Shown one piece after another: positions 11,801 to 63,818 of a stretch of 64,000 bases of DNA (positions are counted from its first letter, which is position 1; each line of letters begins with the position of its first letter). The position numbers and the translations under genes were made by a program. Under the pieces are notes generated by a model. It made no database searches and was not told the DNA's origin. It was given only the letters and a program-made list of their open reading frames with translations. Source of the stretch: Nannocystis bainbridge. GTDB taxonomy: Bacteria; Myxococcota_A; Polyangia; Nannocystales; Nannocystaceae. The stretch lies in assembly GCF_028368995.1 (NCBI RefSeq), contig NZ_JAQNDL010000001.1, forward strand, positions 672,001 to 736,000, read 5' to 3'.

Positions 11801-12397
11801 CGCGTGATCCTGTGCGTGCCGAGCCTGCTCGGGCCCGGCACGCCGAAGCGGCTGCAGGAGGTCCGCGACCACTGCCTGCTCACCGCCGTCGACGCCATGC
11901 GGGCCACCCGCGGCGATCGCTTCGCGCTGTTCTCCCCGGGCGCCGGCGCCGACCGGGCCGTGCGGTTCACCAGCACCTCGGTGGTGATCGACGACGCGTT
12001 CGCGCTGACCGGCACGACCCACCTGTGGCGCCGCGGCCTGTCGTGGGACTCGTCGCTGGCGGCCGCGGTGTTCGACGAGCGGGTGATCGACGGCCGCCCG
12101 CAGGATGTCCGCGCGTTCCGGATCCAGCTGCTGGCCGACCGCCTGGGGATCCCGACATCACGCGTGCCCGACGACCCGGCCGAGCTGGTGCGGGCGATCC
12201 GCGAGCTCGACGCCCGCGGCAGCAACCGCCTGTCGGCGATCCCGATCGCGCGCCCGAGCGACACGCCGCAGAACGCCGACATCGACGCGTGGAACGCCGA
12301 CGGCAGCAAGGACGACCTGGACCTCGCCAGCGTCGCGGCCCTGCTGATGGCGTTCATCGCCCTCACCGACGTCGACCACGCGATCGTCGAGGGCTGA
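8816..12397 (+). CDS. Large protein with C-terminal phospholipase D-like domain, HKD motifs degenerate (1193 aa)
   Basis: ELHGTGVRLTGAPAV, ARETLQALLAAIDRAQDFVYVETP and FTSTSVVIDDAFALTGTTHLWRRGLSWDS align with PLD WHD....GPA, AI..A..FIYIE and HSKxxxxDD...GSAN..RS...D; 7 nt after previous stop. Confidence 0.85.
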   Translation: MAITLNPPIDNLGIMAPVLGPWFSAADVNLGVPDPAQRLGLTVDFAADTDWFAPATGTLSLFVTGGATPATLDALQDSSGAFPFPAGRIVAYFRLLPEVEARLHALVGLVPAATANPVTDPPTAAAAPTRPQVRSLAIVLPAATPLTPAGLYPFFGGEGDIPGGDPAEKMAAIGLALNGGNLVNAALPMTWLRRPGGAAGDRDVLLQDLNGEVQLWAFDRRGRAIDPGAVACWWSWLLATAVGDDPATGDADIQLLAPDIEANDYPQQGGGPVVVQFAAQRTAHLVDAHEGPLAAPFLGGRLQVDGAVANDALVLVADNDDIALTFAALPAPGTPPTADNPQVDDAPRARMAVLPTGNYGTTATLWPGGPVHAGLTRDFVRVAVVDEERHLVGLARRDSREDATTTEERLRSAQNRPSTRIEVHRTSTPDGVLLTHSQAAADALLAVPNTDDPSRLVLGLGDFAWGGAPSAAAPTPGAGPLPTTLADSGAAVPTAGQYRVRALTGGGALAQDQQTVLVEVNLGTACAGAWVRAWPLGFNLEVGLHFRTTGGAGRVNAAGVAQFTMVLLNGTLGASGLLGMDTLVLLPDSTGAVAAQRRYADRRFARPAPVGGIAATTIAGDWVVCETGATGSGALPNGAVPPGGHVVLLTATPTIVDRTAIPAAAWDADTLRNRLQATDIVSLTSPAFGSTPDRADVLGRPLPRTPTAGGNPRGGLDTIVGNRLHYFDRLAVGLTSASSTPYSLLDRLEVAAATVGDDAATAVIGTAPPVPWALESAREFFLGHPGVPAAIELHGTGVRLTGAPAVAVAEYVRERTAGLSFAEVQALVEPDRSATIQSELAVAAEAVTALPTIADGADPGPVVAVLRTTALGMEGRPGVGYDAVDDEQFPFSEHEDELADWLDDNIPVEGAAGTALRDAVTGPTASITRALDRRIQTAASGARETLQALLAAIDRAQDFVYVETPAVDAMPIDHGGDNVEWWTRLVARMGARPGLRVILCVPSLLGPGTPKRLQEVRDHCLLTAVDAMRATRGDRFALFSPGAGADRAVRFTSTSVVIDDAFALTGTTHLWRRGLSWDSSLAAAVFDERVIDGRPQDVRAFRIQLLADRLGIPTSRVPDDPAELVRAIRELDARGSNRLSAIPIARPSDTPQNADIDAWNADGSKDDLDLASVAALLMAFIALTDVDHAIVEG

Positions 12398-12411
12398 TAC
12401 GCGGAGCTCCG

Positions 12412-12443
12412 GGCGAGGCCTGACCGAAAGGACAGGTCTCGCC
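12412..12443 (+). terminator. Hairpin downstream of the giant operon (possible terminator or stabiliser)
   Basis: GGCGAGGCCTGACC-GAAA-GGACAGGTCTCGCC imperfect stem with GAAA loop; no U-tract. Confidence 0.45.
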
Positions 12444-12783
12444 CCGCGCCGTCACGACTCGCACTCGAGCTCCGCCTCGAAGCGGCGAGTCGACATGGGC
12501 AGAACGTCTACTACGACCGCGCCTCCCGCCTCTCGGTGACCCACGGTCGGTCCCGCCCGGACATGCGCGCCGGCAGCCTGCCGTTCACGCCTGAGCCGGC
12601 ACCTGCGCAGGCGCCCCTGCGCGCATGTCCGCGTGCGAGTCCGAAGTGAGCCTCGATCCCGACCCCACGCCGCCCGTTCGCGCGCGGCGCAGGCCCGGTT
12701 CCGAGCCGATCCTGCGGCGAGCACCGCACGTTGATCGCCGCCGACCGCGAATGTAAAGATCGTCGGCGACGGAGGGTAGAGGG

Positions 12784-13215
12784 GTGAGTACATCGAGTGT
12801 GGCATCCAAGGCGCAGAGCGACAGCGGCTACAGCGCGGACTCGTGGATCGACGTTCGGCTCGAGCCGATGACCAAGCTGTGGCAGGGCATCGGCGGGGAG
12901 AGCAACTTCTTCCTCAGCGAGAACGACGCCCGCGAGGCGCGGGGGGCTTACCAGGACGCGCGCGGCTACAAGTTCGCCGAGACGCTGTGGCGGCTGGCCC
13001 AGGTCCAGCCCAACGCCGTGCACGGCTATCGCCTCGGGATCCGCGAATTCGTGGTCGACCTGCCGACCCCGGCCGCCTGTGCGGTCTGCGTCGCCAACAC
13101 CAACCTGGGCAGCGGCGGCGTCTTCCAGTACTACATCGTCGACTGGAAGAACTACCTGTTCGAGACCGGTCGTCACTTCCACTTCGGCAGCGCGAGCTGG
13201 CGCGGCACGATCTGA
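12784..13215 (+). CDS. Small protein resembling a stand-alone polymorphic-toxin (TNT/ART-like) domain
   Basis: GGAGG upstream, good codon bias; AQVQPNAVHGYR...ANTNLGSGGVFQYYI recalls the G.GG..QY tail of TNT-like toxin domains. Confidence 0.6.
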   Translation: MSTSSVASKAQSDSGYSADSWIDVRLEPMTKLWQGIGGESNFFLSENDAREARGAYQDARGYKFAETLWRLAQVQPNAVHGYRLGIREFVVDLPTPAACAVCVANTNLGSGGVFQYYIVDWKNYLFETGRHFHFGSASWRGTI

Positions 13216-13242
13216 CGCCAGCGCTCGCGCCATCGGAGCAGG

Positions 13243-13400
13243 GCGCGTCGCTCCGGCGCGAGCATCCGGGCGCGCGCCGCATCGCCGGCGTGCGCACCCT
13301 GACGCGGCACGTGCGGCGCATCGCGGCGCGTCGCTCCCATGCGAGCATCCGGGCCCGCGCCGCGTCGCCGACCTGCACGACCTGGCGCATCGCGGCGACC
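13243..13400. repeat. Imperfect intergenic tandem duplication (unit about 83 bp)
   Basis: GCGCGTCGCTCC...GCGAGCATCCGGGC.CGCGCCGC.TCGCCG...GCGCATCGCGGCG starts at 13243 and 13326. Confidence 0.65.
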
Positions 13401-13468
13401 GCTCGAGCGCGCGACGGCGAGGCGCCGTCGACACGCATCGAGCTCCATGAGACTCGCTCTGCCGCGAC

Positions 13469-14569
13469 TCAGGGCGAGAAGCCGCAGCCGTCAAGGTTGT
13501 CGTAGAGCGCCATGCTGCCCTTGAAGCCGTTCGCCTTCATCAGCGCGTGCGCCATCTCGGCGTTGCCGCACCACAGCTTCTTGTTGTGGCCGAAGTACGC
13601 CGTGCTCTTCGGCAGGAACGCCGCCACGTCGAGGACGTCGACCAGCTCGCCGTTGTATTCGAAGCGGATCTCGCCGTCGATGGTCGCCGCGCCGAGCCCC
13701 ACGAGCGACTCGATCCCGTTGCCGGAGACCTTCACGCTGCCGCCGACGAAGCTCAGCGCCCCGAGCCCTTGCAGATCTTTTAATGAAGGGTGGCCGATCA
13801 GCTCGAAGCGGCCGAACCCCTGCGGCGTGGCCCCGATCGAGGTCAACTTGGCGAGCGCGTGCAGGCTCGCCAGCGGCGCGTTGGCCTCGATGACGAGCTG
13901 ACCGCCGACCTCCTCGAGGCTGTCCAGGCCGTCGAGGCTCGCAAGCGCCGTTTGCACGATCTCGAGATCGCCGCCGACCCGCCGCAAGCACTGCAGCCCG
14001 GCCAGGCTCGTCAAGCCGGGCGCGTGGATCGTCAGGTCGCCCGTGATCTCCCCGTAGGCCGCGAGCGCCGCGACGTCGAGCGAGTTCTCGATCGAGAACG
14101 ATCCGCCCAGCACCTCGAGGTCGGGCGCGCAGTCGATCGGTTCGCCGGTCGAGCCCTCACCCGTCGAGCTGTCCTCGCTCGTCGAGCCCGTCGTGCTGTC
14201 CTCGCCCGTCGAGCTCTCGCCCGTCGCGCTCTCGCTCGTCTCCCCCGTCGAGCTCACCTCGCTCGTCGAGCTCTCGCTCGTCTCCCCGCTCGAGCTGCCC
14301 TCGCTCGTCTCGCCGCCCGAGCTGCCCTCGCTCGATTCGGAGTCCGGCGTGAGCGGGGCGGTCGACTCCTCGGTGGTCGAGGTCGTCGGCCCGGTGGCGT
14401 CGGAGCCCTGCGAGCTCGTGCTCGCGTCAGTCGCCTCCGTGGACGCCGTCTCGGTCCCGGTCCCGCTCTCGCCGGGGCAGGCCGCGAAAAGACTCAAGCC
14501 GGCGGTCAGCACGAGCGAGTCGAGCGCGAGGGCGCGGTGCGACGATGACGATAGGGTCAGCCTGGTCAT
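13469..14569 (-). CDS. Lipoprotein with Ser/Thr/Glu stalk and receptor-L-domain-like leucine-rich repeats
   Basis: Lipobox LFAAC; GETSESS repeats; ITGDLTI..LTSLAGLQCLRRVGGDLEI..LASLDGLDSLEEVGGQLVI. Confidence 0.8.
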   Translation of the reverse strand: MTRLTLSSSSHRALALDSLVLTAGLSLFAACPGESGTGTETASTEATDASTSSQGSDATGPTTSTTEESTAPLTPDSESSEGSSGGETSEGSSSGETSESSTSEVSSTGETSESATGESSTGEDSTTGSTSEDSSTGEGSTGEPIDCAPDLEVLGGSFSIENSLDVAALAAYGEITGDLTIHAPGLTSLAGLQCLRRVGGDLEIVQTALASLDGLDSLEEVGGQLVIEANAPLASLHALAKLTSIGATPQGFGRFELIGHPSLKDLQGLGALSFVGGSVKVSGNGIESLVGLGAATIDGEIRFEYNGELVDVLDVAAFLPKSTAYFGHNKKLWCGNAEMAHALMKANGFKGSMALYDNLDGCGFSP

Positions 14570-14972
14570 AGGATTCTCCTGAGCGCGGAAATAGTGGGTG
14601 CGGCGGCGCCTCGCTCGAGGCGACCGCGCGCGGCCGGTGGGTTTTAAAAAGTAAGTCGCCGCCTCCCGGCCGTTCCGTCACGGCCGCGCCGGAGCCGGCC
14701 AAAACGGCGCCACAGCCCGCAGGAGCCCCCCCTGCGACGTCAAGCGGGCCAGGACCGCCGCGCCGCGGGTCCGAACCGAGACGGATGCCACCTGCATCCG
14801 TCGCTCCCGCAATGACGCGAACTCGGCGGGTGGCTGCACGCCGCGGCCGCTGCCAGCAATGGCGCGACGGCTCGCGGCCCGGGCGACGCACCCCGCACGC
14901 GGTGGATCGGCCGCCCGCGCTTCAACTTTGCCCGGCGCCCTGCTATGCAGGCGCGATGCTCGGAGGCCTCCG

Positions 14973-16364
14973 GTGAGCTACAGCGGCGCCCAGGTGTACT
15001 TGCCTCGCGGCCCCACCGCGGCCGCGATCGCCAGGTGGCTCGCGGAGCGGCTGCCGGACGCCGAGGTCGAGCGCTCCAGCAGCCGGATCGTGCTGCGCCT
15101 GCTGGGCGCCGAGCTCGCGCTGGCGATCGACCGCGCGCCGCACGTGCGGGTGGAGGCGCAGGAGCTCGCGGAGCGGGCACCCGCGGGCGCCGCCAGGCTG
15201 CTGCGCCGCGCGACGCGACGGATCGAGATTTTGCCCCGCGATCCCCGGGCCGACGTCGACGACCTTTACGACGCGTTGCTGCTCGTCTTCGAGACCCTGC
15301 GCGGCATGCCGGAGGTCGTCGGCTTCGACCCGTTCGACGGCGCGTTTTATTGCGCCGACGCGCTCGCTACCGGCGCGGAGCCCATGATCGTGTATCGCGT
15401 CGCCGACCTGCCCGAGGGCCTCGCGCTGGACCTGCCGGCGGACGCAGGACCTCGCGGGTGCTTGTTCTGGATCCACCCGCCCGGCGGCGCCGCGTGCGAG
15501 GCCTTGATGGCGGCGCTGCCCGAGCCGGAGCTCGATCATGTCGACGAGGGCCTGGCGCTCGCCACCCTCGTCATGAGGCTCGGCGGCCGCGGGGGCCGCC
15601 TCGCGGCGATCGTGCCGCCCAGGCTCACCGACGGCGAACCGACGTGGGGCCTCGGCTTCCACACCGGACCCGCCGACGTCACCGAGCAGTTCCTGCGGGC
15701 CGCCGGCCACGACCTGCGCCCGGCCTCGCAGATCCTCGACGGGCTCGCCATCGTCGAGGTGCGGGCCGCCGACGACTCGCCGTGCTCGCAGCTCGTCGAA
15801 CGCACCGTGTGCGACGGCCGATTGCGCCTCGGTGTGCTCCGCACGGCCGGCCGCGGGCTGTTCACCGTCGAGGGGCCGGCGCAGCGCTGGGCGCTGCTCG
15901 ACCGCGAGCGCCGCGAAATGATCGAGCGCGAACTGCCGCCCGCGGGCGTCGTGACGGACATCAAGCTGCGCCCGGTCGCCCCGCGCCGGGCAGCGCGGAC
16001 CCGCGACGCGCTGGAGCGTCTGTGCCGCGAGCACGACCTCGCCGCGCCGGAGCCGGAGATCGGCGCCACAGTGCTGCGCCTGCTGCCGCACGCGGTGCTC
16101 ACCGCGGGCAGCTGGGACGGCCCCGCGGCGGACATCAAGGCCCTCGCCCGTCGCAAGCTCGGCGGCGAGTGGCTGGCGGTGATCGCCGGCGCGTGGGTCG
16201 AGCGGATGTTCCACGACGGCCCCGTCGCGGCGAACCACATCGATCTGTTCACCGCGATCGACGGTTGGCTCGAGCAGGCGATCGGCCGCGAGGCGCTCCG
16301 CGAGGCGACCGTTCGCGCCCTCGAGCGCATCGATCACAGACCACCGGCGCGGGCCAGGACCTGA
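14973..16364 (+). CDS. Hypothetical protein (about 463 aa)
   Basis: GTG at 14973 preceded by GGAGG, in frame with track ORF 14859; protein-like composition; no family recognised. Confidence 0.65.
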   Translation: MSYSGAQVYLPRGPTAAAIARWLAERLPDAEVERSSSRIVLRLLGAELALAIDRAPHVRVEAQELAERAPAGAARLLRRATRRIEILPRDPRADVDDLYDALLLVFETLRGMPEVVGFDPFDGAFYCADALATGAEPMIVYRVADLPEGLALDLPADAGPRGCLFWIHPPGGAACEALMAALPEPELDHVDEGLALATLVMRLGGRGGRLAAIVPPRLTDGEPTWGLGFHTGPADVTEQFLRAAGHDLRPASQILDGLAIVEVRAADDSPCSQLVERTVCDGRLRLGVLRTAGRGLFTVEGPAQRWALLDRERREMIERELPPAGVVTDIKLRPVAPRRAARTRDALERLCREHDLAAPEPEIGATVLRLLPHAVLTAGSWDGPAADIKALARRKLGGEWLAVIAGAWVERMFHDGPVAANHIDLFTAIDGWLEQAIGREALREATVRALERIDHRPPARART

Positions 16365-52838: not shown

Positions 52839-52850
52839 GCGACCTGTCAC

Positions 52851-53045
52851 GGCATGTCCCACGGGACATGTCGCCTCAGGCTCGCGTCACACCATGACCA
52901 GGACGAACAGGCGCCTGTCCCATGAGACAGCCTCGGTTCACGTGCTCAGGATGGACAACAGCCTGTCCCATGAGACAGATTTTGCATGTCCTAGCGACGA
53001 ACACGCGCCTGTCCCATGAGACAGATTCCGTTCACGTGCTCACGG
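52851..53045. repeat. Intergenic repeat block: GACATGTC pair plus three copies of GCCTGTCCCATGAGACAG
   Basis: CATG at 52853 and 52867; 18-mers at 52913, 52961, 53007 (spacing 48, 46). Confidence 0.8.
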
Positions 53046-53860
53046 AAGACCCCGCGCCTCGGCGATCGCGGCCCGCTCCCACGCGGCCGAGCGCGACCTC
53101 CCCTCCGCCTCGAAGAACGCCTCGATCTCCCGGACCGGGCCGTTGCGCGCCCCCGAGCGCGCGTCCTCGTAGGGCAGCGGATGCGCCCACAGGCCCGGCT
53201 CCGGCCCGAACGCATCCATCACAAGGACGCCCTCCGCGATCCGTGCCCCCCCCGACACACGCTCCGCGATCGGGACACGCTCGCCGCTGACGATGTCGAC
53301 CAGCGCGAAATCTCGCAACTCGAGCACCGGCCAACCGGGCCCGCTGCTCGGGGGCGCCATCACCTCGCGCGTGGAATTACCTCGAAAAACTTCGTCTCGT
53401 TGAGACGAAACGACGCCATCCCCACGCCCGTCAGCAGCCGCTCCCTCTCGCCGCTGGCGAGATCGACCCGCCAAAAGCTGCCTATGCCGGCTTGGTCCTG
53501 GCCGGGCAACCAGTACACCACCCGATCGCCATCGAGTTCGCGCAGGGAGAGCCCATCATTGCGCGACGTGTGCCGGTAGAAATCACGGACCTCGCCGGTC
53601 CGCGGATCCCAGAATGCCTCCACCTCGCCGGCGTCGCTCGCTCGCAAGATCCGGAACTGATCTTCAAACCAACCGCGTTGCTCGAGGTGCTCCGGCACCG
53701 CGATCGCAGCGCCCGTATCGAGCCGTGCGGCGGCCACGTAACGGTTGTCGGGGCCGACCATGGCCGCCCGTCGCGGCCCGTATGGGCTACGGACGGCGAG
53801 TTCAGTGAGCCTTCCATGTCCCAGGTCGCGCTCGTTTTCGTCCTGTCGTCGCGGACCATA
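53040..53860 (-). pseudogene. Probable frameshifted remnant of a beta-propeller-like protein
   Basis: Protein-like text (VVYW..GSFWRVDLASGERERL) ends at 53360 and continues in another frame (FALVDIVSGERVPIAE..GLWAHPLP); weaker codon bias. Confidence 0.45.
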
Positions 53861-53866
53861 AATTCA

Positions 53867-54784
53867 TCAATCCGCCGCGGGCCCGGCGAACTCCACCATC
53901 CCCACGCTGCCGACCCGCAGCCCCGCGCTCGCCCCCTCGTGCAGCCGCGCCTCCGCGAACAGCAGCCGCGTCCCCGCATCGATCTCGGGCGCGATCGCCA
54001 TCACTTCGCCCTCCACCGTCCGCCCCTCCTCGACGAACGCCACCTTCACCGCCGCGCCCAATCGCAGCCCCGCGCTGCGCGCCTCGGGCACCGCGAATCG
54101 CACCCGCCGCGCGTCCGAGATCAGCTGCACCACCGCCCGGCCCGGCTCGACCGTCGCGCCTGCGTCCACGTGGCGTCGCGCGACCTCCCCGGCGAACGGC
54201 GCCCGCAGCTGCGCCTCGACGATCCTCGCCGACGCGTCCTCCACCGTGCTGCGCTGCCGCTGCAGCGACGCGCTGGCGCTGCGCTTGCGGGCCGCCGCCA
54301 GCTTCTCGGCGTAGCGGTGCTCGCGGACCTCCGCCCCCGAGACCACCCCCTCCAGCTGCTCGGTGTCCGCGCGCAGCTCCCTCGCCCGCTGCAGCTCGAG
54401 CTCCAGTCGCTCGAGCTCGGCCTTGCTCGCAGCCCACGCCGCCGTCGCCCCTGCCAGCTCGTGGCGCTCCTCGCGGACATCGAGCGCCGCGATCACCTCG
54501 CCCGCGTTCACGTGGTCGCCGACCTGCACCTCGATGCGATCGATCCGCGAGAATTCCGGCGCCGTCAGCACCACCTCCGCCTCGGGCACCAGCACCCCGA
54601 TCATCGGCTCCGAAGCAATGACGGCAGCCGCGACCGCCGCCTCGTCCGCGCGCACCGCAGCGGGCTGTGGTGATTCGCCGGGGCCGTCCTCGTGGGAATC
54701 ACAAGCCACCGCGAAGCACCACAATCCCCACGCCGCGATCGCTGCGTGACGACGTCCTGCTGCCCTCATTACCGCGCGCCTCAT
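53867..54784 (-). CDS. Efflux periplasmic adaptor subunit (HlyD/RND MFP), possible lipoprotein
   Basis: VQVGDHVNAGEVIAALD, coiled coil, LRAPFAGEV..RHVDAGATV; FAVAC. Confidence 0.88.
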   Translation of the reverse strand: MRRAVMRAAGRRHAAIAAWGLWCFAVACDSHEDGPGESPQPAAVRADEAAVAAAVIASEPMIGVLVPEAEVVLTAPEFSRIDRIEVQVGDHVNAGEVIAALDVREERHELAGATAAWAASKAELERLELELQRARELRADTEQLEGVVSGAEVREHRYAEKLAAARKRSASASLQRQRSTVEDASARIVEAQLRAPFAGEVARRHVDAGATVEPGRAVVQLISDARRVRFAVPEARSAGLRLGAAVKVAFVEEGRTVEGEVMAIAPEIDAGTRLLFAEARLHEGASAGLRVGSVGMVEFAGPAAD

Positions 54785-56988
54785 GACTCCTCCCTCTCAT
54801 AAAGCCGGCGGTACGCGCCGCCGTGGCTCATCAACTGGCGGTGCGTCCCCGACTCGACGATCCGTCCGCCGTCCATCACAAGGATCAGGTCCGCGTCGAC
54901 CACCGTCGACAGCCGATGCGCGATCACCACGCGGGTGCAGCGCAGCGACGCCAGCGAGCGCTGAATCGCCGCCTCGGTCACCGTATCGAGGTTGCTGGTC
55001 GCCTCGTCGAGCAGCAGCATCGCCGGCGCGCCGACCAGCGCGCGCGCCAGCACCAGTCGCTGGCGCTGGCCGCCCGACAGCGACGCCCCGCGGTCGGCCA
55101 GGATCGTGTCGTAGCCCATCGGCAGGGCCGCGATCTCGTCGTGGATCGCCGCCCGCCTGGCCGCGTCGATCACCTCGTCGAGGCTGATCTCGGGCCGCCC
55201 GAGCGCGATGTTCTCGCGCACCGACACCCCGAACAGGTCGCCGCGCTGCGTCACCACCCCGAGCTGCTCGCGGACGCTGCGCAGATCGAGCCCGGCGATG
55301 TCGAGGCCGTCGTAGAGCACCCGCCCGCCCTGCGGCGCATAAAGGCCGACCAGCAGCTTGGCCAGGGTCGACTTGCCTGCTCCCGACGCGCCGACCACCG
55401 CCACGAACTGGCCCGGCTCGACCCGCACCGACACCTCGCGGACCGCCGGCGGCACCGACTCCGAGTAGCGGAACGTCACCGCCTCGGCCTGGATCCGCCC
55501 CGACAGCCGCGGCGCCCGCTGGACCCGCGACGCGTCCTGCTCGGGCTCGGTCTGCATCACGTCTTCGATGCGCTCGAGGTAGCTGCCCAGCACCTGGAAC
55601 TTGACCGCGACGCCGACCAGCGTGGTCATCGGCCGCAAGAACCCCGAGCCCAGCGCCGACAGCCCGAGCATCGCCCCGAGCCCGAGCTCTCCGTCCAGCA
55701 CCAGCTTGGTGCCCACGCCCAGGATCACCAGCGGCGCCGCCATCGCGAACGCGTCGAGCAGCGAGCCGATGGTCGCGTCGAGGCGACCGCGCCGCAGCGA
55801 CACGTTGAGCGAGTCGACGAACAGGTTGGACCAGCGATCGACCGCCCGGTACTCGGCGCCCATGCTCTTGAGCGTCTCGATGCCGGTGAGCATCTCGACC
55901 TCGTAGCTCGAGGTCCGCGCCTGCACCGCCAGGCCCTCGGTCATCAGGTCGCGCTGGACCCGGCGCGTCGCAGCGTACAGCGCCAGCTGCAGCGACGCGA
56001 GCACCAGCACCACCGCGCCCATCAGCGGGCTGACCCAGAAGATCAGCACCAGGTACACGCTGACCAGCGTGCCGTCGAGCAGGGCCGACATGGCCCCCGA
56101 CGTGAGGATCTCGCGGACGGTGGCGTTGCTGCCGAGCCGCATCAACAGGTCGCCGGCCGACCGCTTGTGAAAGAACGAGTACGGCAGGTCGATCAGGTGA
56201 TCGAGGAAGCCGATCGTCATGTCAGCGTCGAGCAGCGTGCGCAGCTGCACCAGCAGGTTGGCGCGCACCAGCGAGCTGACGAAGGTGAAGAGCACCATCA
56301 TCGCCAGCCCGGCGACCAGCACCCCGAGCAGGTCTGTGTCGTGGCGCGGGAGGATGCGGTCGACCAGCAGCGTGGTCATCAGCGGCAGCGCCAGCGCCAG
56401 CAGCTGCACCAGCACCGACATCAGCAGCGCGCGGCTCCACAGCGCGGGGTAGGCCAGGATCCGGCCGAAGTAACGGCGCACCAGCGGCTGCTGGCGACCG
56501 CCGGCCGCGAACGCCTCGCCGGGCTCGAGCAGCAGCGCCACCCCGGTGAACGCCTGCTCGAACTCGGCCCGCGACACCCGACGCCGCCCGTGCGCCGGAT
56601 CGAGGATCACCGGACCGCGGCGATCGACCCGTTCGAACACCACGAAGTGGTTGAACTCCCAGTGGAGGATCGCGCCGGCCTGCAGCATCTCGAGCTCGTC
56701 GAGGTCGTCGATGCGCACGCCGCGGCCGCGCAGCCCGTAGCCGCGAGCGGCCCGCAGGATGCCGAGCGCGCTGACGCCGTTGTGGTCGACCCCCATCGCG
56801 TCGCGCAGCTCGTCGAGCGGGTGGGCCCGGCCGTGATAACGCAGCACCATGCTCAGGCAGGCCGCGCCGCAGTCGGTCGCGGTCATCTGCTGCACGTGCT
56901 CGAGCCGACGCGGCTGCCCGATCGCCCCCAGACGCTGCAGGGCAGGGAAGCGCCGCGACAGCGCACGATCTCGTTCGGTAGTTGGCAT
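54781..56988 (-). CDS. C39 peptidase-containing ABC transporter (PCAT)
   Basis: QQMTATDCGAAC, LHWEFNHFVV, ILDPA; Walker A GASGAGKS; LSGGQRQ; LLLDEAT. Confidence 0.95.
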   Translation of the reverse strand: MPTTERDRALSRRFPALQRLGAIGQPRRLEHVQQMTATDCGAACLSMVLRYHGRAHPLDELRDAMGVDHNGVSALGILRAARGYGLRGRGVRIDDLDELEMLQAGAILHWEFNHFVVFERVDRRGPVILDPAHGRRRVSRAEFEQAFTGVALLLEPGEAFAAGGRQQPLVRRYFGRILAYPALWSRALLMSVLVQLLALALPLMTTLLVDRILPRHDTDLLGVLVAGLAMMVLFTFVSSLVRANLLVQLRTLLDADMTIGFLDHLIDLPYSFFHKRSAGDLLMRLGSNATVREILTSGAMSALLDGTLVSVYLVLIFWVSPLMGAVVLVLASLQLALYAATRRVQRDLMTEGLAVQARTSSYEVEMLTGIETLKSMGAEYRAVDRWSNLFVDSLNVSLRRGRLDATIGSLLDAFAMAAPLVILGVGTKLVLDGELGLGAMLGLSALGSGFLRPMTTLVGVAVKFQVLGSYLERIEDVMQTEPEQDASRVQRAPRLSGRIQAEAVTFRYSESVPPAVREVSVRVEPGQFVAVVGASGAGKSTLAKLLVGLYAPQGGRVLYDGLDIAGLDLRSVREQLGVVTQRGDLFGVSVRENIALGRPEISLDEVIDAARRAAIHDEIAALPMGYDTILADRGASLSGGQRQRLVLARALVGAPAMLLLDEATSNLDTVTEAAIQRSLASLRCTRVVIAHRLSTVVDADLILVMDGGRIVESGTHRQLMSHGGAYRRLYEREES

Positions 56989-56994
56989 GACGAC

Positions 56995-57960
56995 CTACAG
57001 GCGTTTGAGCGCCGGGATGAGGGCCTCGAGCACGGTCTCGGAGCGCAGGCGGGCCTCGAGCACGCCCTGCATGCCGTCGTAGACCCGGTACTCGGTGTCG
57101 TCGGCGACGAAGGTGTCCGCCGGCAGCTCGGTCTCCACCACCACCACCGGGCCCGCCAGCGCGATCGCACCTTCACGATCGCGCCCGAGGTAGCGCATCG
57201 CCTCGGCGGGGCCGACCACCTCGTCGGCCACCACGCGCAGCGCCACCTCGTGCCGGCTGTCCGGGAACCCCTCGAGCTCGAGGAACAACCGGCTGTCCCC
57301 CGCGCGCAGCAGCGGCCGGTAGTGCCCGGGGAACAGCCCGAACACGACCGTGCGCGCCGTGTCCTGCTCGACCGCCACCACCGCGTCGCCCGGCGCCACC
57401 GGCTGCCCCGGCCGCACGCGCACGTCCGACACCCTGCCCGGCTGCGGCGCGACGATCTGCCGCTCGCGCACCCGCGCCTGCGCCAATTGCAGCTGCGCCT
57501 TCAGGATCGCCAGCCGCTCGCGCCTGGCGTCGTCGGCCGGCGCGCGCAGCAGCTCGACGAGTCGCTGGCGGTACTCCTGCTCCACGCGCGCCAGCTCGGC
57601 CCGCGGCGCGGCGTCGTCGAGCTGGACCAGCACCTGCCCGGTAGCGACGCGCTGACCAGTGCTCACCGCGATGTGCTGCACGGTGCCGGGCACGTCCGAG
57701 GTGACCGCCACGCGGCCCTCGCGGCGCACCACCGCGACGCCCTGCGCGTACTCGCCGATGCTCGCGCTGGTGGCGAACGCGACGCTCGCGACCAGCAGCG
57801 CCAGCGTCACGCCGACGGCCCAGCGCGTCCACGTCGCCACGATGTGCAGCGGGCGGCCCGGTCCCGCGCCGCGGCGGTGCGCCTGCACGGCCGCCTCGCG
57901 GAAGATGGCCCGCCGCGCCCCCGGCGAAGCGCTGCTCGGCTCGTCGAACGACTCGGTCAT
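56995..57960 (-). CDS. HlyD-family secretion adaptor
   Basis: IFREAA, N-terminal TM, GTVQHIAVSTGQRVATGQ, IVAPQPGRV. Confidence 0.88.
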   Translation of the reverse strand: MTESFDEPSSASPGARRAIFREAAVQAHRRGAGPGRPLHIVATWTRWAVGVTLALLVASVAFATSASIGEYAQGVAVVRREGRVAVTSDVPGTVQHIAVSTGQRVATGQVLVQLDDAAPRAELARVEQEYRQRLVELLRAPADDARRERLAILKAQLQLAQARVRERQIVAPQPGRVSDVRVRPGQPVAPGDAVVAVEQDTARTVVFGLFPGHYRPLLRAGDSRLFLELEGFPDSRHEVALRVVADEVVGPAEAMRYLGRDREGAIALAGPVVVVETELPADTFVADDTEYRVYDGMQGVLEARLRSETVLEALIPALKRL

Positions 57961-59153
57961 CGCACCCCCCGTTCCCCGATCACGTCGTGACGCGCCGGCT
58001 CCTCGCGGCGCACCACGACCAGCCCGTCGAGGACCTCGTGCCAGGCTGCGCGCTGAAATTCATGGTTGATGGGGCGAGCCTCGACGGAGCCCAGCGCCCG
58101 CAGCTCCGCCGCGTCGAGGTAGCGCAGCGCCTGCTCGGGCCCCAGCGCCCGGCCCTCGAGCGACGCGGGCGGCGCGACCGAGAGCTCCCGACCCGCGCGC
58201 CCGCGCGGCTGGGTGGCCCCCGACCAGGCGGAGAAGCCGATCGCCGCGGCCCGCTCGCCGTACTGCGCGTGCACGTACTGCCCGAGCGGCGAGAACCCGC
58301 GATAGGCCGCGATCGCCTCGAGATCCTTGGCCGCGTGCACGGTCGCGCACCACACGATCGTCTTGCCCGCGTCGCCCTGCCGCCGCCGATGCCACACGAA
58401 GTTGGCGAACATCGACCGGTCGCGTTCATTAAAACCATCGCGCCGATCGACGACAAAATCTCGCGCGACCCACCGCGCCAGGTTGCTCGCCATGACCAGG
58501 TCCTCGGCCGCTTTCGGCGACGGCGCCGCGCCGGCGATCGCCGCCTGGATGTCCGCGAGACATTTCACGAGCGCCGCCTGCGTCTCCGGCGAATGCGGGT
58601 GGTCCTCGTCGTAGGTCCACAGGTGATGCCGCGCGATCTGGGCCTCGCACGCGTCCTTGCGCCCCGGCGGCAGCCAGGCCGCCAGCACCGCCGGCAGCTC
58701 TCGCTGCGCATAATAAGCCGTGGAGTGGAGCTGGTCGTCGAGCCCGCGCAGCTTCAACCGGCCCGCCGCCGCCGCCGCGTGCATGAACCCGATCCACGGC
58801 TGCGTCTCGCGGGCCTCCGACCACACCGCGCCGATGGCGTTCGCCACGTCGCGCGCCGTCGCAGTGCCCGCGGCGTACTTGTGCTCGAGCGCGAGCATCT
58901 CGTAGATGTCGCTCTCGATGAACAGCGCCTCGAACCCGCACGAATCGACCAGCGCGCGCACCAGCGCGGTCTTGATCGCCCAGGTGCGACCGTCCCCGTG
59001 CTCGCTCTCGCCGAGCAGCACGACCTGCTTGTCGCAGACATCGGCGACCAGGCGCTCGAGCTCGCGCTGCTCCGCGCTCGCGCTCGCCGGCGCCGAGGCG
59101 GGCCCCGGCGCGCACGCGGCGAGGGCCAGAAACACGATCGTGGGCCGCTTCAT
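57957..59153 (-). CDS. Erythromycin esterase (EreA/B) family lipoprotein
   Basis: MKRPTIVFLALAAC lipobox; VVLLGESEHG, GFEALFIES, GLDDQ, RDRSMFAN, KTIVWCATVH. Confidence 0.85.
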   Translation of the reverse strand: MKRPTIVFLALAACAPGPASAPASASAEQRELERLVADVCDKQVVLLGESEHGDGRTWAIKTALVRALVDSCGFEALFIESDIYEMLALEHKYAAGTATARDVANAIGAVWSEARETQPWIGFMHAAAAAGRLKLRGLDDQLHSTAYYAQRELPAVLAAWLPPGRKDACEAQIARHHLWTYDEDHPHSPETQAALVKCLADIQAAIAGAAPSPKAAEDLVMASNLARWVARDFVVDRRDGFNERDRSMFANFVWHRRRQGDAGKTIVWCATVHAAKDLEAIAAYRGFSPLGQYVHAQYGERAAAIGFSAWSGATQPRGRAGRELSVAPPASLEGRALGPEQALRYLDAAELRALGSVEARPINHEFQRAAWHEVLDGLVVVRREEPARHDVIGERGVR

Positions 59154-59170: not shown

Positions 59171-60316
59171 TCAGCCCCGCACGATCGGCAGGTGCACGCG
59201 CGCCTGGTAGTGCGCCAGCGCGGCCGCGGCGCCCGCCCGAGTCTGCCAGTCGGCCCACGTATCGGTGTACGGATCGTAACCGCACTTGAGCGGCTTGCTG
59301 TCCTCGACCGCCGGGTCGGCCAGCAGCGCCCGGCAGCCGGTGCACGCATAACGGTACGGACAATCGCGGCAGACCTCGATCTCGTCGTTGCGGGCGGCCC
59401 AGACCCGGCGAAACGCCTCGTCCGCGACCACCTGCGCCAGCGAGACCGCCCGGTGGTCGCCGAACGACCCGCGCATGGCCGGGCAGTTGCGGACCTCGCC
59501 GCGCTCGTCGATCGCCAGCTTGCGATTCAGGCAGCCGCTGAATTGCCGCAGCTCGTTGAAGGTCGGCGTGGTCGGCGGCAGCAGCTGCCGCTTGCCGATC
59601 TGCCCGCAGTCCAGCGCCGACTCGAGCGGCTTGACGGTCATCGAGATCTCGAGCGTCAACAGCGTCGCGGCGTCCCCACGCGCCCCGTAGTCGACCGCGA
59701 GCCGCCGCTCCTGCGGCGCCGAATGGACCGTGAGCCCGGTGATGAGGCGATGGGCGCCGACCACCGCCACGTAGTCGTCGTCGCTGCGCCCGGGCTCGTG
59801 GGCGAGGATCGCCTCCAGCGTCTGGATCGACGAGCCCCGGCACAGGCGCGCCAGCTCGTCGAGCTCGGCCAGGCCGAACACCCCGGCGTAGCCCCGCACC
59901 TGGAGGTGCTGGCAGCCGAGGCCGCTCAGCTCGGCGACGATCTTGCGATAGTCGTGGTGCTGCCCGCGGACGTCGACGATGGCGTTGTGGATCGCGCAAG
60001 GCGCGTCCCAGGCCCTGGAGATCTCCGGAAACGCCGCCGCGTCGGCGACGACCGCCACGTATTCGTTCGCCAGCAAGAAATCCAGGAACGCCACGAAATC
60101 GTCGTGCTCCTCGGGCGACAGCGCGTCCACGATCTCGCCCAGGCGGCGGGCCCGGAACAGCGCGAAGAACGGGAAATAGGCCGACGGGAACGTCGAGATG
60201 TGCTTGCGGGTGAGGTCGTAGATCGCCGACGCGGCGGCCCCCTCGACCGGCACGCAGTCGGAGAAGAGGAACACGTACTCGTCGCGTCGGTCGCGTAACA
60301 ATTGAGTGGAGTCCAT
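59171..60316 (-). CDS. Grasp-with-SPASM system SPASM-domain peptide maturase
   Basis: FSDCVPVEG..SAIYDL.R, NAIVD, CLNRKLAID..G.VRNCP.M, IEVCRDC.YRYAC.GCR, KPLKCGYDPY; no CxxxCxxC radical-SAM motif. Confidence 0.88.
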   Translation of the reverse strand: MDSTQLLRDRRDEYVFLFSDCVPVEGAAASAIYDLTRKHISTFPSAYFPFFALFRARRLGEIVDALSPEEHDDFVAFLDFLLANEYVAVVADAAAFPEISRAWDAPCAIHNAIVDVRGQHHDYRKIVAELSGLGCQHLQVRGYAGVFGLAELDELARLCRGSSIQTLEAILAHEPGRSDDDYVAVVGAHRLITGLTVHSAPQERRLAVDYGARGDAATLLTLEISMTVKPLESALDCGQIGKRQLLPPTTPTFNELRQFSGCLNRKLAIDERGEVRNCPAMRGSFGDHRAVSLAQVVADEAFRRVWAARNDEIEVCRDCPYRYACTGCRALLADPAVEDSKPLKCGYDPYTDTWADWQTRAGAAAALAHYQARVHLPIVRG

Positions 60317-60319
60317 CGT

Positions 60320-60520
60320 TCAAAGCTCCGGTTTGGAGATCGGTTTGCCCGCGTGACGGGCGTACATCACCGAATGGCGGTACTTCGGCAGCTCGAGCGT
60401 CGCCCGCTGCGTCGCCTCGGCGTCGACGATCGCGGCGCTGATGACGATCCGCGCGTAGCCCAGCGGCAGGCTCGCCTTGAGAAGGGGGGTCAGGGTCATC
60501 TCTTCAAACTCTTTGCTCAC
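60320..60520 (-). CDS. Small accessory protein of grasp-with-SPASM cluster (66 aa)
   Basis: Overlaps ATP-grasp stop, ends 3 nt before SPASM start; good codon bias. Confidence 0.7.
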   Translation of the reverse strand: MSKEFEEMTLTPLLKASLPLGYARIVISAAIVDAEATQRATLELPKYRHSVMYARHAGKPISKPEL

Positions 60521-61499
60521 GCGCCACCAGCCTCTCTGCGATCATTCGCTCGATCGCCATGTTGCAGCGCTCCGACAGCGGGCCGAACTGCCCGACCGGG
60601 TTGACCTCGAGCAGGTAGTATTCGCCGTGCGCGTCGACGATCATGTCGAACGAGCCGGTGTTCAGATCGAGCGAGCGCGCCAGCAGGGACAGCTTGGCCT
60701 CGATCTCCGGCGGCAGGCGAAACGGGACCACCCGGTTCGGTCTTTCGCTGTTGTACTTGCGATAGTCGACGCGGGTCTGCGCGTCGCTCTGCGAGAAGAT
60801 GGCCGCCGCGCGAAACTGGTCGTCGAGGAAGAACACCCGCAGCTCGAAGGCCTTGTCGACGTACCGCTGGAACAGCGACGGCGCCATGCGCTCGCCCACG
60901 CCCTCGAGCACCCGCGGCTCGAGCGCCTCGGTGTACGTGAAGTACCCGGTCCTGCTCTCGGTCGTGTCGAACAGATAGAGGCCGTCGGACATCGCCTTGG
61001 TCACGTAGCCGCAGCCCGAAGCCACCAGGCTCTGCGCGTGGCTGCGCAGGTTCGACACGCTGTACGGCGGCGTGCGCAGGCCGACCTCGCGCGCGCGCCC
61101 CAGCACCACCAGCTTGTTGGGGGCCGAGCCGTTGGCGCTGCCCAGCACGGCGCTGCGCCGCCGCAGCAGGTCGTGAAAGTGGTCGCGCAGGGTGCGGTTC
61201 TCCAGGTCGAGCTTGTGTTGCAGGTGCCGCGCCAGCGCCGGGTGCTCGGGCGCCGCCACGCTCGGGAACAGGCCCTTGAACCAGAAGCCGCCCTTGCGCA
61301 GCCAGACGCTCGTCACGTCCTCGAGGCCGAACGCGTCCTCGTCGACCCGGACGGAGAAATCATCGTCCGAGATCGTCAGCTCGACGCTGTACTCCTCGTC
61401 CGCGTTGATCCGCACGACCTTCGCGTCGCTCAGGTGGTCGATCCATCGCATCACGTCGAGGGTCGAAGGATCCCCGGAATTGCTGAAGATCAAGATCAT
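60504..61499 (-). CDS. ATP-grasp peptide maturase (graspetide synthetase, grasp-with-SPASM type)
   Basis: ATG 61499 with GGAG RBS; SVWLRK, NKL..L..A..VGL.TP, TKAMSD, PSLFQRYVDKAFELRVF, VDYR, LNTGSFDMI, LEVNPVGQFG. Confidence 0.92.
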   Translation of the reverse strand: MILIFSNSGDPSTLDVMRWIDHLSDAKVVRINADEEYSVELTISDDDFSVRVDEDAFGLEDVTSVWLRKGGFWFKGLFPSVAAPEHPALARHLQHKLDLENRTLRDHFHDLLRRRSAVLGSANGSAPNKLVVLGRAREVGLRTPPYSVSNLRSHAQSLVASGCGYVTKAMSDGLYLFDTTESRTGYFTYTEALEPRVLEGVGERMAPSLFQRYVDKAFELRVFFLDDQFRAAAIFSQSDAQTRVDYRKYNSERPNRVVPFRLPPEIEAKLSLLARSLDLNTGSFDMIVDAHGEYYLLEVNPVGQFGPLSERCNMAIERMIAERLVAREQRV

Positions 61500-61591
61500 G
61501 GCAGGCTCCATCGCTCGTATCGCCCGCATCGGGCCGGAGAGGCGCGGCCTCCACCGGCACATGCCGGTAGAGGCCACGACCCTCGCGCGGG

Positions 61592-61753
61592 TCAGTCGTT
61601 GTCGTTGACGCCGTCGATGTGGCACTTCGACTTCGTGCCCGAGCTCTCCGGGGGCATCCCGCCGGTCACCTGGCACAGCTCGTCCGCGCCGAGCGTGTTG
61701 GCCGTGAACTTGGGCAGCTGCTTCTCTTCGTTCTTTCTAAGGTTCTTTTTCAT
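61592..61753 (-). CDS. RiPP precursor 3 (double-glycine leader; core MPPESSGTKSKCHIDGVNDND)
   Basis: MKKNLRKNEEKQLPKFTANTLGADELCQVTGG|core; paralogous to two upstream ORFs. Confidence 0.88.
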   Translation of the reverse strand: MKKNLRKNEEKQLPKFTANTLGADELCQVTGGMPPESSGTKSKCHIDGVNDND

Positions 61754-61860: not shown

Positions 61861-62043
61861 TCAGGCCACGCCGCCGCCGCCGTCGCCGTCGTCGATGCCG
61901 TCGATGTGGCAGATCGACCACGTGCTGCCGGACTCCGGCTCCCTCCCGCCGGTCACCCGGCACAGCTCGTCCGCGCCGAGCGTGCGGCCGCTGAACTTGG
62001 GGAGCTTGTTCTCGTGGTCTCGCTTCTTCATGGGCTTATTCAT
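61861..62043 (-). CDS. RiPP precursor 2 (core REPESGSTWSICHIDGIDDGDGGGGVA)
   Basis: Leader ...LPKFSGRTLGADELCRVTGG; GGAAGGAATGGA upstream. Confidence 0.88.
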   Translation of the reverse strand: MNKPMKKRDHENKLPKFSGRTLGADELCRVTGGREPESGSTWSICHIDGIDDGDGGGGVA

Positions 62044-62113: not shown

Positions 62114-62281
62114 TCAGTTGCAGCCGTCACAAGTACCGTCGACGTGGCAGACGCTGTGCGTGTTGGCGGTCTCCGGCGGCATCCCGCCCTTGACCTGGCA
62201 CAGCTCGTCCGCGCCGAGGGTCTGGCCGTGGAACCTCGGCAGCTTCTTCTCGTCGTCGCGCTTCTTCATGGGCTTGTTCAT
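62114..62281 (-). CDS. RiPP precursor 1 (core MPPETANTHSVCHVDGTCDGCN)
   Basis: Leader ...LPRFHGQTLGADELCQVKGG; upstream sequence nearly identical to that of precursor 2. Confidence 0.88.
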   Translation of the reverse strand: MNKPMKKRDDEKKLPRFHGQTLGADELCQVKGGMPPETANTHSVCHVDGTCDGCN

Positions 62282-62490: not shown

Positions 62491-62828
62491 GGGCTGGACG
62501 ATGATTCGCCGCCCCTGACATTCGTGTCGCGGCGAAACGCCGGGGCGACACGCGAGAATCCTCGACCGCCGCGCGAGGCCGTCTCCGCGCAATCGAGAAC
62601 TCGTTGGTCGGCGCTCCGTGAGCTCCGACACTATCCCCATCGCCGGCCCGCGACCAGCGCAGCGAGGGTCCGGGCGACCCACTGCATGGATTGCCCGCCC
62701 GCTGCGAGACGGCCGCTCTCCATGGCCATTCACCGCACCACGAATGGCCATACCCCCGCGATGCTCCCCGGTGCGCGAGGGCCGAACTGCCGCTTCGCCG
62801 GCGGCCGCGACCCGGTTATGCTCCGCGC

Positions 62829-63818
62829 ATGCGCCCCGCGCCTCACCGCCTGACGATCGCCCTCGCGGCGCTCCTCGCGTGCGGCCCGGCCCGCGACGAG
62901 GCCCCGGCCCCGCTCCCGGTCCCGCATGCGCCCGCGGACCCGCCCGGGCCCGCCGCGCCCCTCGAAGCACCCCCCGCCTCGCGCGACGACGCTTCCGTGC
63001 ATCACCAGGCATTCGCCCGCCGCGTCCTCTACACCTGGACCACCCCGGCCCAGATCGACGCCCTGCGCCGCTCCCGACGCCTGCTGGTCGCCGACAGCGA
63101 CGTCGGCGAGCGCTCGCCCTACCTGCGCGCGCTCGACCGCCTCGCCGGCACCCACCCGCTCGCCGCGATCCTGCGCGACCACCCCGGCCATCGCCGGCGC
63201 CGTTACGCCTGGACCAGCCCGCTCGCCACCACCCTCGGCCTCGGCGAGCGCCGCTACGGCGACGCCCTGATCCGCATCGACCTCACGGACGACGCCCTCG
63301 TGGTCGGCTTCCGCCCGCACGCCGCCGAGCCGTTTGTCCTCGAGGACATGTCCGGAGAGCCAGTCGATCTCGCCGTCGCCCTCGCCGACCCCGGGCGGAT
63401 CGCCGCCGTTTATCACGTCCGCGACGGCCCCGACGACGCCGTCGCCTTCCGCGAGTACGTCGTCTGCAACGAGTCGCGGATCGCCGCCTGGTCGGTCGCC
63501 ACGCCGGAGCTCCGCGCCCGCGTCGACGCCGACATCGCCCTGCTCGAGGCGCGGCGCCGCGACCTGGCCCATCTGCCCGCCGCCGCCGTGCGCAGCCCGG
63601 CCACCGCCGTGTGGGCCACCGCGCCGGACCGCCCGACCCCGCTCGATCTCTGGCACGCCCGGCTCGCCTTCGACAACGAGCGCTACCGGCCCACGCCTGC
63701 CAACCTCGCCGCCATCATCGCCGCGCTACGCGACTACGACCCCGCCGGCGAGCCGCTGATCCACCGGCCCGATGCCGCCTTCCCCGAAGGTCAGCTCGCG
63801 TCCCAGACCGCGCGGTAG
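62829..63818 (+). CDS. Hypothetical lipoprotein, possible ADP-ribosyltransferase-like fold
   Basis: ALAALLAC lipobox; LYTWTT, YAWTSP, YG..LIRIDL, FREYVV. Confidence 0.7.
   Translation: MRPAPHRLTIALAALLACGPARDEAPAPLPVPHAPADPPGPAAPLEAPPASRDDASVHHQAFARRVLYTWTTPAQIDALRRSRRLLVADSDVGERSPYLRALDRLAGTHPLAAILRDHPGHRRRRYAWTSPLATTLGLGERRYGDALIRIDLTDDALVVGFRPHAAEPFVLEDMSGEPVDLAVALADPGRIAAVYHVRDGPDDAVAFREYVVCNESRIAAWSVATPELRARVDADIALLEARRRDLAHLPAAAVRSPATAVWATAPDRPTPLDLWHARLAFDNERYRPTPANLAAIIAALRDYDPAGEPLIHRPDAAFPEGQLASQTAR

Follow-up and report, generated by a model that had tools for sequence, protein, structure and literature searches.

In this work, we analysed a window of 64,000 nucleotides from Nannocystis bainbridge (contig NZ_JAQNDL010000001.1 of assembly GCF_028368995.1, positions 672,001 to 736,000; the coordinates given below are counted within this whole stretch), focusing on a gene of the erythromycin-esterase (Ere) family, hereafter the Ere-like gene, located within a graspetide operon of the grasp-with-spasm type. 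We tentatively propose that this gene encodes an exported, lipid-anchored hydrolase, constituting a dedicated but dispensable accessory of the operon that may reopen an ester ring of the peptide product. Within the same operon, at a distance of a few genes, lies the coding sequence of a candidate substrate, and our comparison with other loci revealed that the enzyme does not belong to the core of the system but is a lineage-specific accessory.

The Ere-like protein matched the Pfam family PF05139 (Erythro_esteras) with 68.1 bits (gathering score 26.4, E 1.4e-18), no other family, TraB, PrgY and Tiki included, was found in the Pfam scan at E<=0.01, and the codon-position guanine-cytosine (GC) contents of the gene (0.74/0.51/0.91 for positions 1/2/3) correspond to a coding pattern typical for a window with 72% GC. 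Its N-terminus, MKRPTIVFLALAAC, displays a basic n-region, a hydrophobic h-region and the lipobox L-A-A-C14, which fits the pattern [LVI][ASTVI][GAS]C. In an alignment of 38 Ere-like homologues (A1), also used as a search profile, 15 of the 17 closest ones (at least 55% identity) display a lipobox-like motif, and the remoter ones carry signal-peptide-like N-termini devoid of the lipobox Cys. Further, C40, C72, C169 and C198 are invariant in 38/38 homologues, and these four cysteines together with the export signal suggest two disulfides outside the cytoplasm; on the basis of the lipoprotein signal and these cysteines, the protein is predicted to reside outside the cytoplasmic membrane, held by a lipid anchor. 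The gene starts 17 bp after the stop of the SPASM maturase gene and is followed by the genes for the HlyD adaptor and the C39-ABC exporter, its TGA overlapping the ATG of the adaptor gene by 4 nt as ATGA (57957-57960). This 4-nt stop/start overlap was kept in the 6/6 related clusters harboring both genes (ATGA in three, GTGA in two and TTGA in one), and, judging from it, the Ere-like gene is translationally coupled to the adaptor gene.

Regarding the fold, a search of solved structures with the single sequence retrieved only the Ere-family proteins BcR135 and BcR136 of Bacillus cereus, and the A1 profile retrieved BcR135, BcR136 and EreC with E-values of 8.1e-19, 5.5e-12 and 0.0027, respectively. 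An AlphaFold2 model built on A1 reached a predicted local distance difference test (pLDDT) score of 93.1 and a predicted template modelling (pTM) score of 0.90, and its comparison by Foldseek yielded BcR135/136 (2RAD, 3B55 and 2QGM; E 1e-16 to 1e-17, TM 0.67-0.70) and EreC (6XCQ; E 2e-13, TM 0.68), a far weaker match to ChaN (2g5g; E 3.8e-4, TM 0.33/0.49), and no other convincing match. According to this model, the Ere-like protein adopts the two-lobed Ere fold. The accessible part of the EreC study describes a metal-independent mechanism in which H50 acts as the base and is oriented by E47, E78 and H289 hold the water, and R261 stabilises the transition state (Zielinski et al., 2021; PMC7979712). 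In the A1 profile alignment, EreC residues E47, H50, E78, R261 and H289 (the deposited chain being numbered 20 residues ahead of that study at all five positions) align with E49, H52, E80, R244 and H273 of the Ere-like protein, all of them invariant in 38/38 homologues. The Ere-like protein is predicted to be a catalytically competent PF05139 hydrolase, a family for which the accessible text of two studies gives ester hydrolyses as the only established reactions (PMC7979712; PMC6254334). In 15 pairs, the ratio of nonsynonymous to synonymous substitutions (dN/dS) of the Ere-like gene was 0.25-0.53, compared with 0.24-0.51 for the SPASM gene, 0.12-0.45 for the ATP-grasp gene and 0.13-0.28 for the adaptor gene. 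An earlier reading of this DNA by a model, hereafter the original prediction, had pointed out the family, the lipobox, the site between maturase and exporter, the ATGA overlap and, as a prediction, the extracytoplasmic location; our data bear out each of these points, and the full set of catalytic residues adds to the first.

The Ere-like protein shares with EreA, EreB, EreC and EreD (EreC structures 6XCQ/6XCS) the family PF05139, the fold and the five catalytic residues, the chemistry of these enzymes being macrolactone ester hydrolysis by an activated water. It differs from them in its low identity (16-17% over the structural alignment), and in having a lipoprotein signal, four invariant cysteines, and the operon of a peptide made by the ribosome and modified after translation (RiPP) as genomic setting rather than a resistance element. 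An assignment as an orthologue of the EreA-D macrolide-resistance enzymes was rejected, as only the EreB model NF000209 appeared, with 16.2 bits against a cut-off of 750. BcR135 and BcR136, which have no known natural substrate, constitute the best matches in sequence and structure, with a Foldseek E of 1.5e-17; however, they display 17-18% identity to the Ere-like protein and a different genomic setting. To our knowledge, hardly any PF05139 protein other than EreA-D has been assigned a physiological substrate.

The operon itself is a grasp-with-spasm graspetide system, with adjacent maturase genes matching TIGR04192 and TIGR04193 above their cut-offs, three precursors with double-glycine (GG) leaders, and an LPL gene (Table 1); the graspetide cluster claimed in the original prediction is hereby supported. 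An alignment of 22 precursor sequences, from the window cluster and related clusters, revealed a shared leader (...LPKF...TLGADELCQVTGG) and an aligned core of the form MPPE[T/S]..[S/T].[S/C].CH[I/V]DG..D.D, with C-terminal parts of differing length. In these cores Thr/Ser and Asp/Glu are conserved and Lys is rare (n=22), so that, in line with the chemistry of the graspetide family, the conserved ATP-grasp cross-links should be esters, and the peptide rings are predicted to be lactones. Searches against NCBIfam gave no match above cut-off for the three precursors, with no family at E<=1 for precursor A, and a weak match of precursor B to TIGR04497 ('putative ATP-grasp target RiPP'; 14.1 bits, cut-off 32).

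With the integration of these findings, the cluster's own peptide is the probable substrate of the Ere-like enzyme. That the bond cut is an ester, with reopening of the ring, is a more tentative proposal, which we put forward as first choice because ester hydrolysis is the established chemistry of PF05139 and the product is predicted to bear side-chain esters. In the mechanism that we envisage, the ATP-grasp ligase would close the side-chain ester rings of the core in the cytoplasm, where the SPASM protein, aided by the small LPL protein, would act on the conserved core Cys; the C39-ABC exporter and the HlyD adaptors would next cut off the GG leader and expel the peptide, and the Ere-like lipoprotein would not encounter the finished peptide until the latter is outside the cytoplasm. 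At that site, a water activated by E49/H52/E80/H273 would hydrolyse a Thr/Ser-Asp/Glu omega-ester cross-link, the oxyanion being stabilised by R244 in the manner of EreC; this would leave an open ring and a mass increase of 18 Da, and peptide staying in or returning to the producer envelope would be inactivated or turned over (self-protection or quenching). Being located outside the cytoplasm, the enzyme could not interfere with biosynthesis and would meet only exported or re-entering peptide. Since this location and the dispensability of the gene, described below, would agree less well with a biosynthetic step than with protection, turnover or quenching, we infer a role in protection or turnover rather than in maturation.

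The linkage of the Ere-like gene to the cluster was assessed in 73 genomes of the order (one family), where TIGR04193 was found above cut-off in 7 and split in an eighth (G435). An Ere-like orthologue (57-100% identity) is present in 7/73 genomes from three genera (G000, G433, G434, G435, G439, G423 and G463), lies directly downstream of the SPASM gene in 7/7 of them, and was not found in the genomes of the order without the cluster; the sole other match at E<=1e-20 in this set was a 37% identical protein on a 2.4-kb contig of G425. Across 401 sampled genomes of the phylum, no TIGR04193 match was found outside the window's own genome, and Ere-like matches were found in nine other genomes, all of them distant (at most 32% identity). 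Further, in G463 (locus L088) and in the metagenome locus L040, both lacking the exporter genes, the Ere-like gene is still found together with those for ATP-grasp, LPL and SPASM. These comparisons of gene neighbourhoods show that, as far as sequence relationships tell, selection or repeated recruitment keeps the Ere-like gene beside the maturases. Eight contig sizes (17028, 4407, 212599, 12477, 12266, 6535, 46657 and 4988) recur among both the Ere-like and the SPASM homologues listed, which points to further contigs shared by both. Another homologue, P0008, named Pyxidicoccus parkwayensis, is 61% identical to the Ere-like protein, and no SPASM protein was found on a contig of its size among the 120 of 155 SPASM matches listed; roughly 55 SPASM homologues display at least 51% identity.

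Some minor observations were made on these related loci. In L088, the stretch following the Ere-like gene (12385-15029, plus strand) encodes an S41-like peptidase, scoring 28.8 bits, and an alpha/beta hydrolase of PGAP1-like type, giving three hydrolases in a row behind the maturases. In G435 (L038, G435:C2, 6167-14006), the SPASM, Ere-like and C39-ABC genes are each broken into two frame-shifted parts, and one precursor continues into an aberrant frame of 97 aa; we did not count this as cluster decay, assembly indel errors being as likely (two contigs, rated 80% complete). The 502-aa database protein P0024, which is named both 'biotin/lipoyl-binding protein' and 'erythromycin esterase family protein' and aligns with the C-terminal 53% of the Ere-like protein, most likely reflects a gene call that passes from the Ere-like gene, frame-shifted there, into the adaptor gene of the G435-type genome.

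The search was extended to other lineages by scanning metagenome contigs with A1, which yielded 45 loci; as a single peptide pattern was used, these represent only part of the family. A SPASM gene is located beside the Ere-like gene in 4 of them (L040, L056, L058 and L060). The Ere-like protein of L040 is 61% identical to that of the window and its gene order is the same, with the exporter genes replaced by an integrase, whereas in the other three the Ere-like proteins are 41-42% identical and their genes are convergent (tail-to-tail) with the SPASM-LPL-ATP-grasp genes. Among the 42 rows of a maximum-likelihood tree, those linked to SPASM fall into two separate clades, each with 100/100 support and with unlinked proteins between them, and the SPASM-linkage label requires two changes. 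A further case was found in a Bacteroidia metagenome-assembled genome (L116), where a third and far remoter PF05139 gene closes a co-directional grasp-with-spasm run (Table 1); the encoded protein has a lipoprotein-like N-terminus and GQSTHG instead of GE..HG, i.e., Gln replacing the first Glu. Taken together, these results are evidence that, on sequence grounds, the Ere-like linkage was recruited or kept in two arrangements and in two to three lineages. As regards the surroundings of these genes, L040 harbors a third precursor gene after the Ere-like gene, followed by a phage-type integrase (PF00589), with no exporter nearby (11267-13037, plus strand), which hints at an integrative element as the vehicle of this cluster; in L058, a fragment of a PepX_C gene (X-Pro dipeptidyl-peptidase / CocE-NonD type; 4087-4743, minus strand) is located upstream of the precursor region and on the same strand; and in L116 the PF05139 gene is preceded by two open reading frames (ORFs) without family, of 533 and 277 aa.

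Several results weigh against a dedicated ester-opening enzyme. A PF05139-like ORF was found in 5 of 80 genomic grasp-with-spasm loci, namely four of Nannocystaceae (L085, L086, L088 and L090) and L116, i.e., in 1 of the 74 loci of non-Nannocystaceae type, and none was found within the examined stretches of the remaining 75. These loci were the best 80 of 538 candidate stretches, mostly from Bacteroidota, Acidobacteriota and Gemmatimonadota, and were searched with the A1 profile and 11 diverse PF05139-like queries, which remoter superfamily members could escape. The Ere-like gene is not a regular component of grasp-with-spasm systems, and, if the peptides are generally toxic to their producers, other means of protection would be needed where it is missing. 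Furthermore, in 41 of the 45 metagenome loci no SPASM or ATP-grasp gene was found within the examined stretch, which measures at least 6 kb in 22 of the 41; the neighbours at these unlinked loci (134 ORFs scanned) are transporters, regulators and housekeeping enzymes. Thus, with most members of the subfamily found alone among unrelated genes, it corresponds to a widespread secreted enzyme that is mostly stand-alone. In the related species G436 the operon lacks the Ere-like gene and is otherwise intact, with proteins 75-90% identical: the 128 bp between the SPASM and HlyD genes (L039, G436:C13, 9385-9512) encode MTLRSIALLAFAACAQGTKGEVP followed by a stop, a remnant of 23 codons comprising the signal peptide and lipobox, with the GTGA overlap to the adaptor gene retained. 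As revealed by blastn, the edges of this deletion map about 1.15 kb apart on the intact Ere-like gene of a relative, and the G436 cluster has one precursor gene compared with three or four elsewhere. Since the internal deletion is clean and the operon was kept, the enzyme is dispensable for keeping the cluster; this deletion and the 75 of 80 genomic loci without a PF05139-like gene speak against a required role in immunity. L089, considered as a second cluster without the gene, was set aside, as it contains only an ATP-grasp fragment and no exporter and looks like a remnant. Further, the related genomes share descent and pass the cluster on in one block, so that the co-occurrence counts overstate independence. 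The tripartite exporter might bypass the periplasm altogether, and the catalytic residues appear equally compatible with cleavage of an ester or an amide bond, since 2His/2Glu residues also serve peptide-bond hydrolysis in RRSP and Tiki, which makes ring opening and trimming indistinguishable at the sequence level. Finally, no experiment on such an enzyme was found in the full-text literature, most subscription journals lying outside its coverage. The original prediction named co-occurrence with ATP-grasp loci among its checks and absence from homologous clusters, together with a lack of activity on the product, as its refutation, and its interpretation is partly supported: the orthologue stands beside the SPASM gene in 7/73 genomes of the order, but no PF05139-like gene was found in 75/80 genomic loci, and in G436 the gene is deleted.

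Among the alternatives, an extracytoplasmic peptidase comparable to Tiki, RRSP or PrgY, which, once C39 has cut, would trim the exported peptide (at its N-terminal residues or its variable acidic/Gly tail) or else degrade the cell's own peptide, would account for several of these traits and is a serious rival, although we consider it unlikely. The accessible text of PMC6254334 describes RRSP as a metal-independent endopeptidase whose 2His/2Glu motif cleaves peptide bonds, and Tiki as a protease of the same fold; that of PMC7117660 describes PrgY as an extracellular peptidase removing endogenous cCF10; Makarova et al. (2022; PMC8939145) list, in the part accessible, the Tiki/TraB proteins of graspetide branch 2 as candidate peptidases; and CgnD, a myxobacterial RiPP 'esterase', proved to be a leader peptidase according to the available text of PMC10885120. 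The variable length of the precursor C-termini is also consistent with trimming. However, the Pfam match is PF05139 and not TraB, PrgY or Tiki at E<=0.01, the window protein sharing with Tiki/TraB/PrgY only the superfamily-level 2His/2Glu motif, and the nearest structures are Ere-family proteins. In addition, the C39 domain already provides for cutting off the leader, so that a main role as leader peptidase was rejected given this domain and the GG leaders, and the conserved PPE[T/S] after the GG site, likely to provide ring partners, would leave little to trim.

The stand-alone loci, the dispensability of the gene in G436 and its absence from 75/80 genomic loci would also be expected of a general secreted esterase for unrelated substrates (soil macrolactones, depsipeptides or other esters) that hitch-hikes in the operon. 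This explanation is rather improbable in our view, as it leaves aside the coupling to the adaptor gene kept in 6/6 clusters, the restriction of the orthologue to cluster-bearing genomes among the 73, the permanence of the gene with the maturases where the exporter is missing, and a linkage that emerged or was maintained in two gene arrangements and in two to three lineages. We assign a very low probability to a non-catalytic lipoprotein, either sequestering the peptide (immunity by binding) or acting as an envelope partner of the HlyD/ABC machine. ChaN is a binding lipoprotein of the same fold and appeared among the structural matches, and the translational coupling to the adaptor gene would suit such a partner; conversely, ChaN matches weakly, clusters without exporter still retain the gene, and the five catalytic residues invariant in 38/38 homologues argue for catalysis.

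The idea of Ere homologues acting in graspetide loci is already in print: in the accessible part of PMC8939145, an erythromycin-esterase homologue ('cluster 575') of branch-4 loci is proposed to act in modification or host resistance. Thus, the statement of the original prediction that no such resistance route is known for graspetides stands as regards experiments, of which we found none, and does not as regards the idea. The operon described here resembles the branch-4 and branch-2 loci of that study, as far as its accessible text describes them, in that a hydrolase from this family or superfamily is encoded along with a maturase of the ATP-grasp type, a double-glycine peptidase and a precursor bearing a GG leader; however, branch-4 loci are gammaproteobacterial and branch-2 loci belong to candidate phyla, whereas the present system contains a SPASM gene, is branch-5-like and belongs to Nannocystaceae, and the likeness to cluster 575 relies on its description. 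The name 'Nannocystis' was not found in 11 supplementary files of PMC8939145, one of which was searched in part. The closest analogue in logic is PrgY/TraB of enterococcal plasmids, extracytoplasmic domains of the same superfamily directed against the cell's own exported peptide, PrgY being thought, in the accessible text of PMC7117660, to destroy the exported pheromone of its own host. PrgY/TraB differ from the window protein in belonging to another Pfam family, in being Gram-positive membrane proteins, and in having a linear pheromone as substrate. Lasso-peptide isopeptidases are likewise hydrolases encoded beside a RiPP cluster that reopen a ring closed by the maturase, although they have an unrelated fold (serine peptidase), cut an isopeptide bond instead of an ester and play a catabolic role.

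We know of no enzyme that undoes graspetide cross-links, nor of an immunity or turnover route for graspetides. The new elements contributed by this work are the secreted, lipoprotein, predicted disulfide-bearing form of an Ere-family protein; the presence of its gene within a SPASM-containing Nannocystaceae system, coupled to the exporter adaptor gene; and the evidence for two to three separate recruitments together with a natural deletion (G436), which provides a ready comparison. That the Ere-like protein constitutes the first dedicated graspetide lactonase, serving self-protection or signal quenching and acquired independently at least twice, is a possibility that we still regard as doubtful. 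If a lactonase, graspetide self-protection or quenching would mirror esterase-mediated macrolide resistance; if a peptidase, a second-step, post-export type of protease would be added to graspetide maturation. Either outcome would assign a function to a secreted and widespread branch of erythromycin esterases, which is routinely annotated like an antibiotic-resistance gene, something that the window gene almost certainly is not.

Table 1. Genes of the grasp-with-spasm operon in the window, and the PF05139 gene of the Bacteroidia locus L116 (positions within that locus).
Feature	Positions	Strand	Length	Details
Precursor peptide A	62114-62281	minus	55 aa	from MNKPMKK; listed ORF starts at TTG 62317; leader ends ELCQVKGG; core MPPETANTHSVCHVDGTCDGCN
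Precursor peptide B	61861-62043	minus	60 aa	GG leader; core REPESGSTWSICHIDGIDDGDGGGGVA
Precursor peptide C	61592-61753	minus	53 aa	GG leader; core MPPESSGTKSKCHIDGVNDND
ATP-grasp maturase	60504-61511	minus	335 aa	from MEPAM, start uncertain; TIGR04192 262.9 bits (cut-off 230)
Small LPL-like protein	60320-60520	minus	66 aa	GTG start; overlaps end of ATP-grasp gene; motif SLPLGY
SPASM maturase	59171-60316	minus	381 aa	TIGR04193 261.5 bits (cut-off 175)
Ere-like gene (PF05139 lipoprotein)	57957-59153	minus	398 aa	lipobox LAAC, Cys14
HlyD-type membrane-fusion adaptor	56995-57960	minus	321 aa	PF13533, PF16576, PF13437
Peptidase-C39/ABC exporter	54781-56988	minus	735 aa	PF03412 124.1 bits, PF00664, PF00005
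Second periplasmic adaptor, RND-MFP type	53867-54784	minus	305 aa	TIGR01730 116.8 bits (cut-off 94.9); PF13437, PF16576
PF05139 gene of L116	13772-15133	plus		124.6 bits; last gene of the run

Regarding the remaining genes of the operon, the ATP-grasp maturase has orthologues of 66-80% identity in 7 related loci, where copies of the small LPL-like protein (48-61% identical) are found at the same position. The latter matched no Pfam or NCBIfam family above cut-off; its position and SLPLGY motif match the LPL family, which, in the accessible part of the study by Makarova et al. (2022; PMC8939145), is always located directly upstream of SPASM genes and is proposed to be PqqD-like. The SPASM protein displays the PF13186 SPASM domain at residues 263-320, with no Radical_SAM match in Pfam and no CxxxCxxC motif seen in its N-terminal part. 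The C39/ABC exporter scored 622.8 bits against TIGR03796, under the cut-off of 853.3, and the gene of the second adaptor, which overlaps the stop of the exporter gene, encodes its own lipobox-like FAVAC.

The genes flanking the operon look unrelated to it, being a major facilitator superfamily (MFS) transporter gene on the opposite strand and a gene without family assignment. About 1 kb downstream of the operon, the stretch 52839-53866 contains no confident gene, and just upstream of the cluster, a gene at 62691-63818 (plus strand) encodes a protein of 375 aa without Pfam family that displays a lipoprotein-like start (LLAC).

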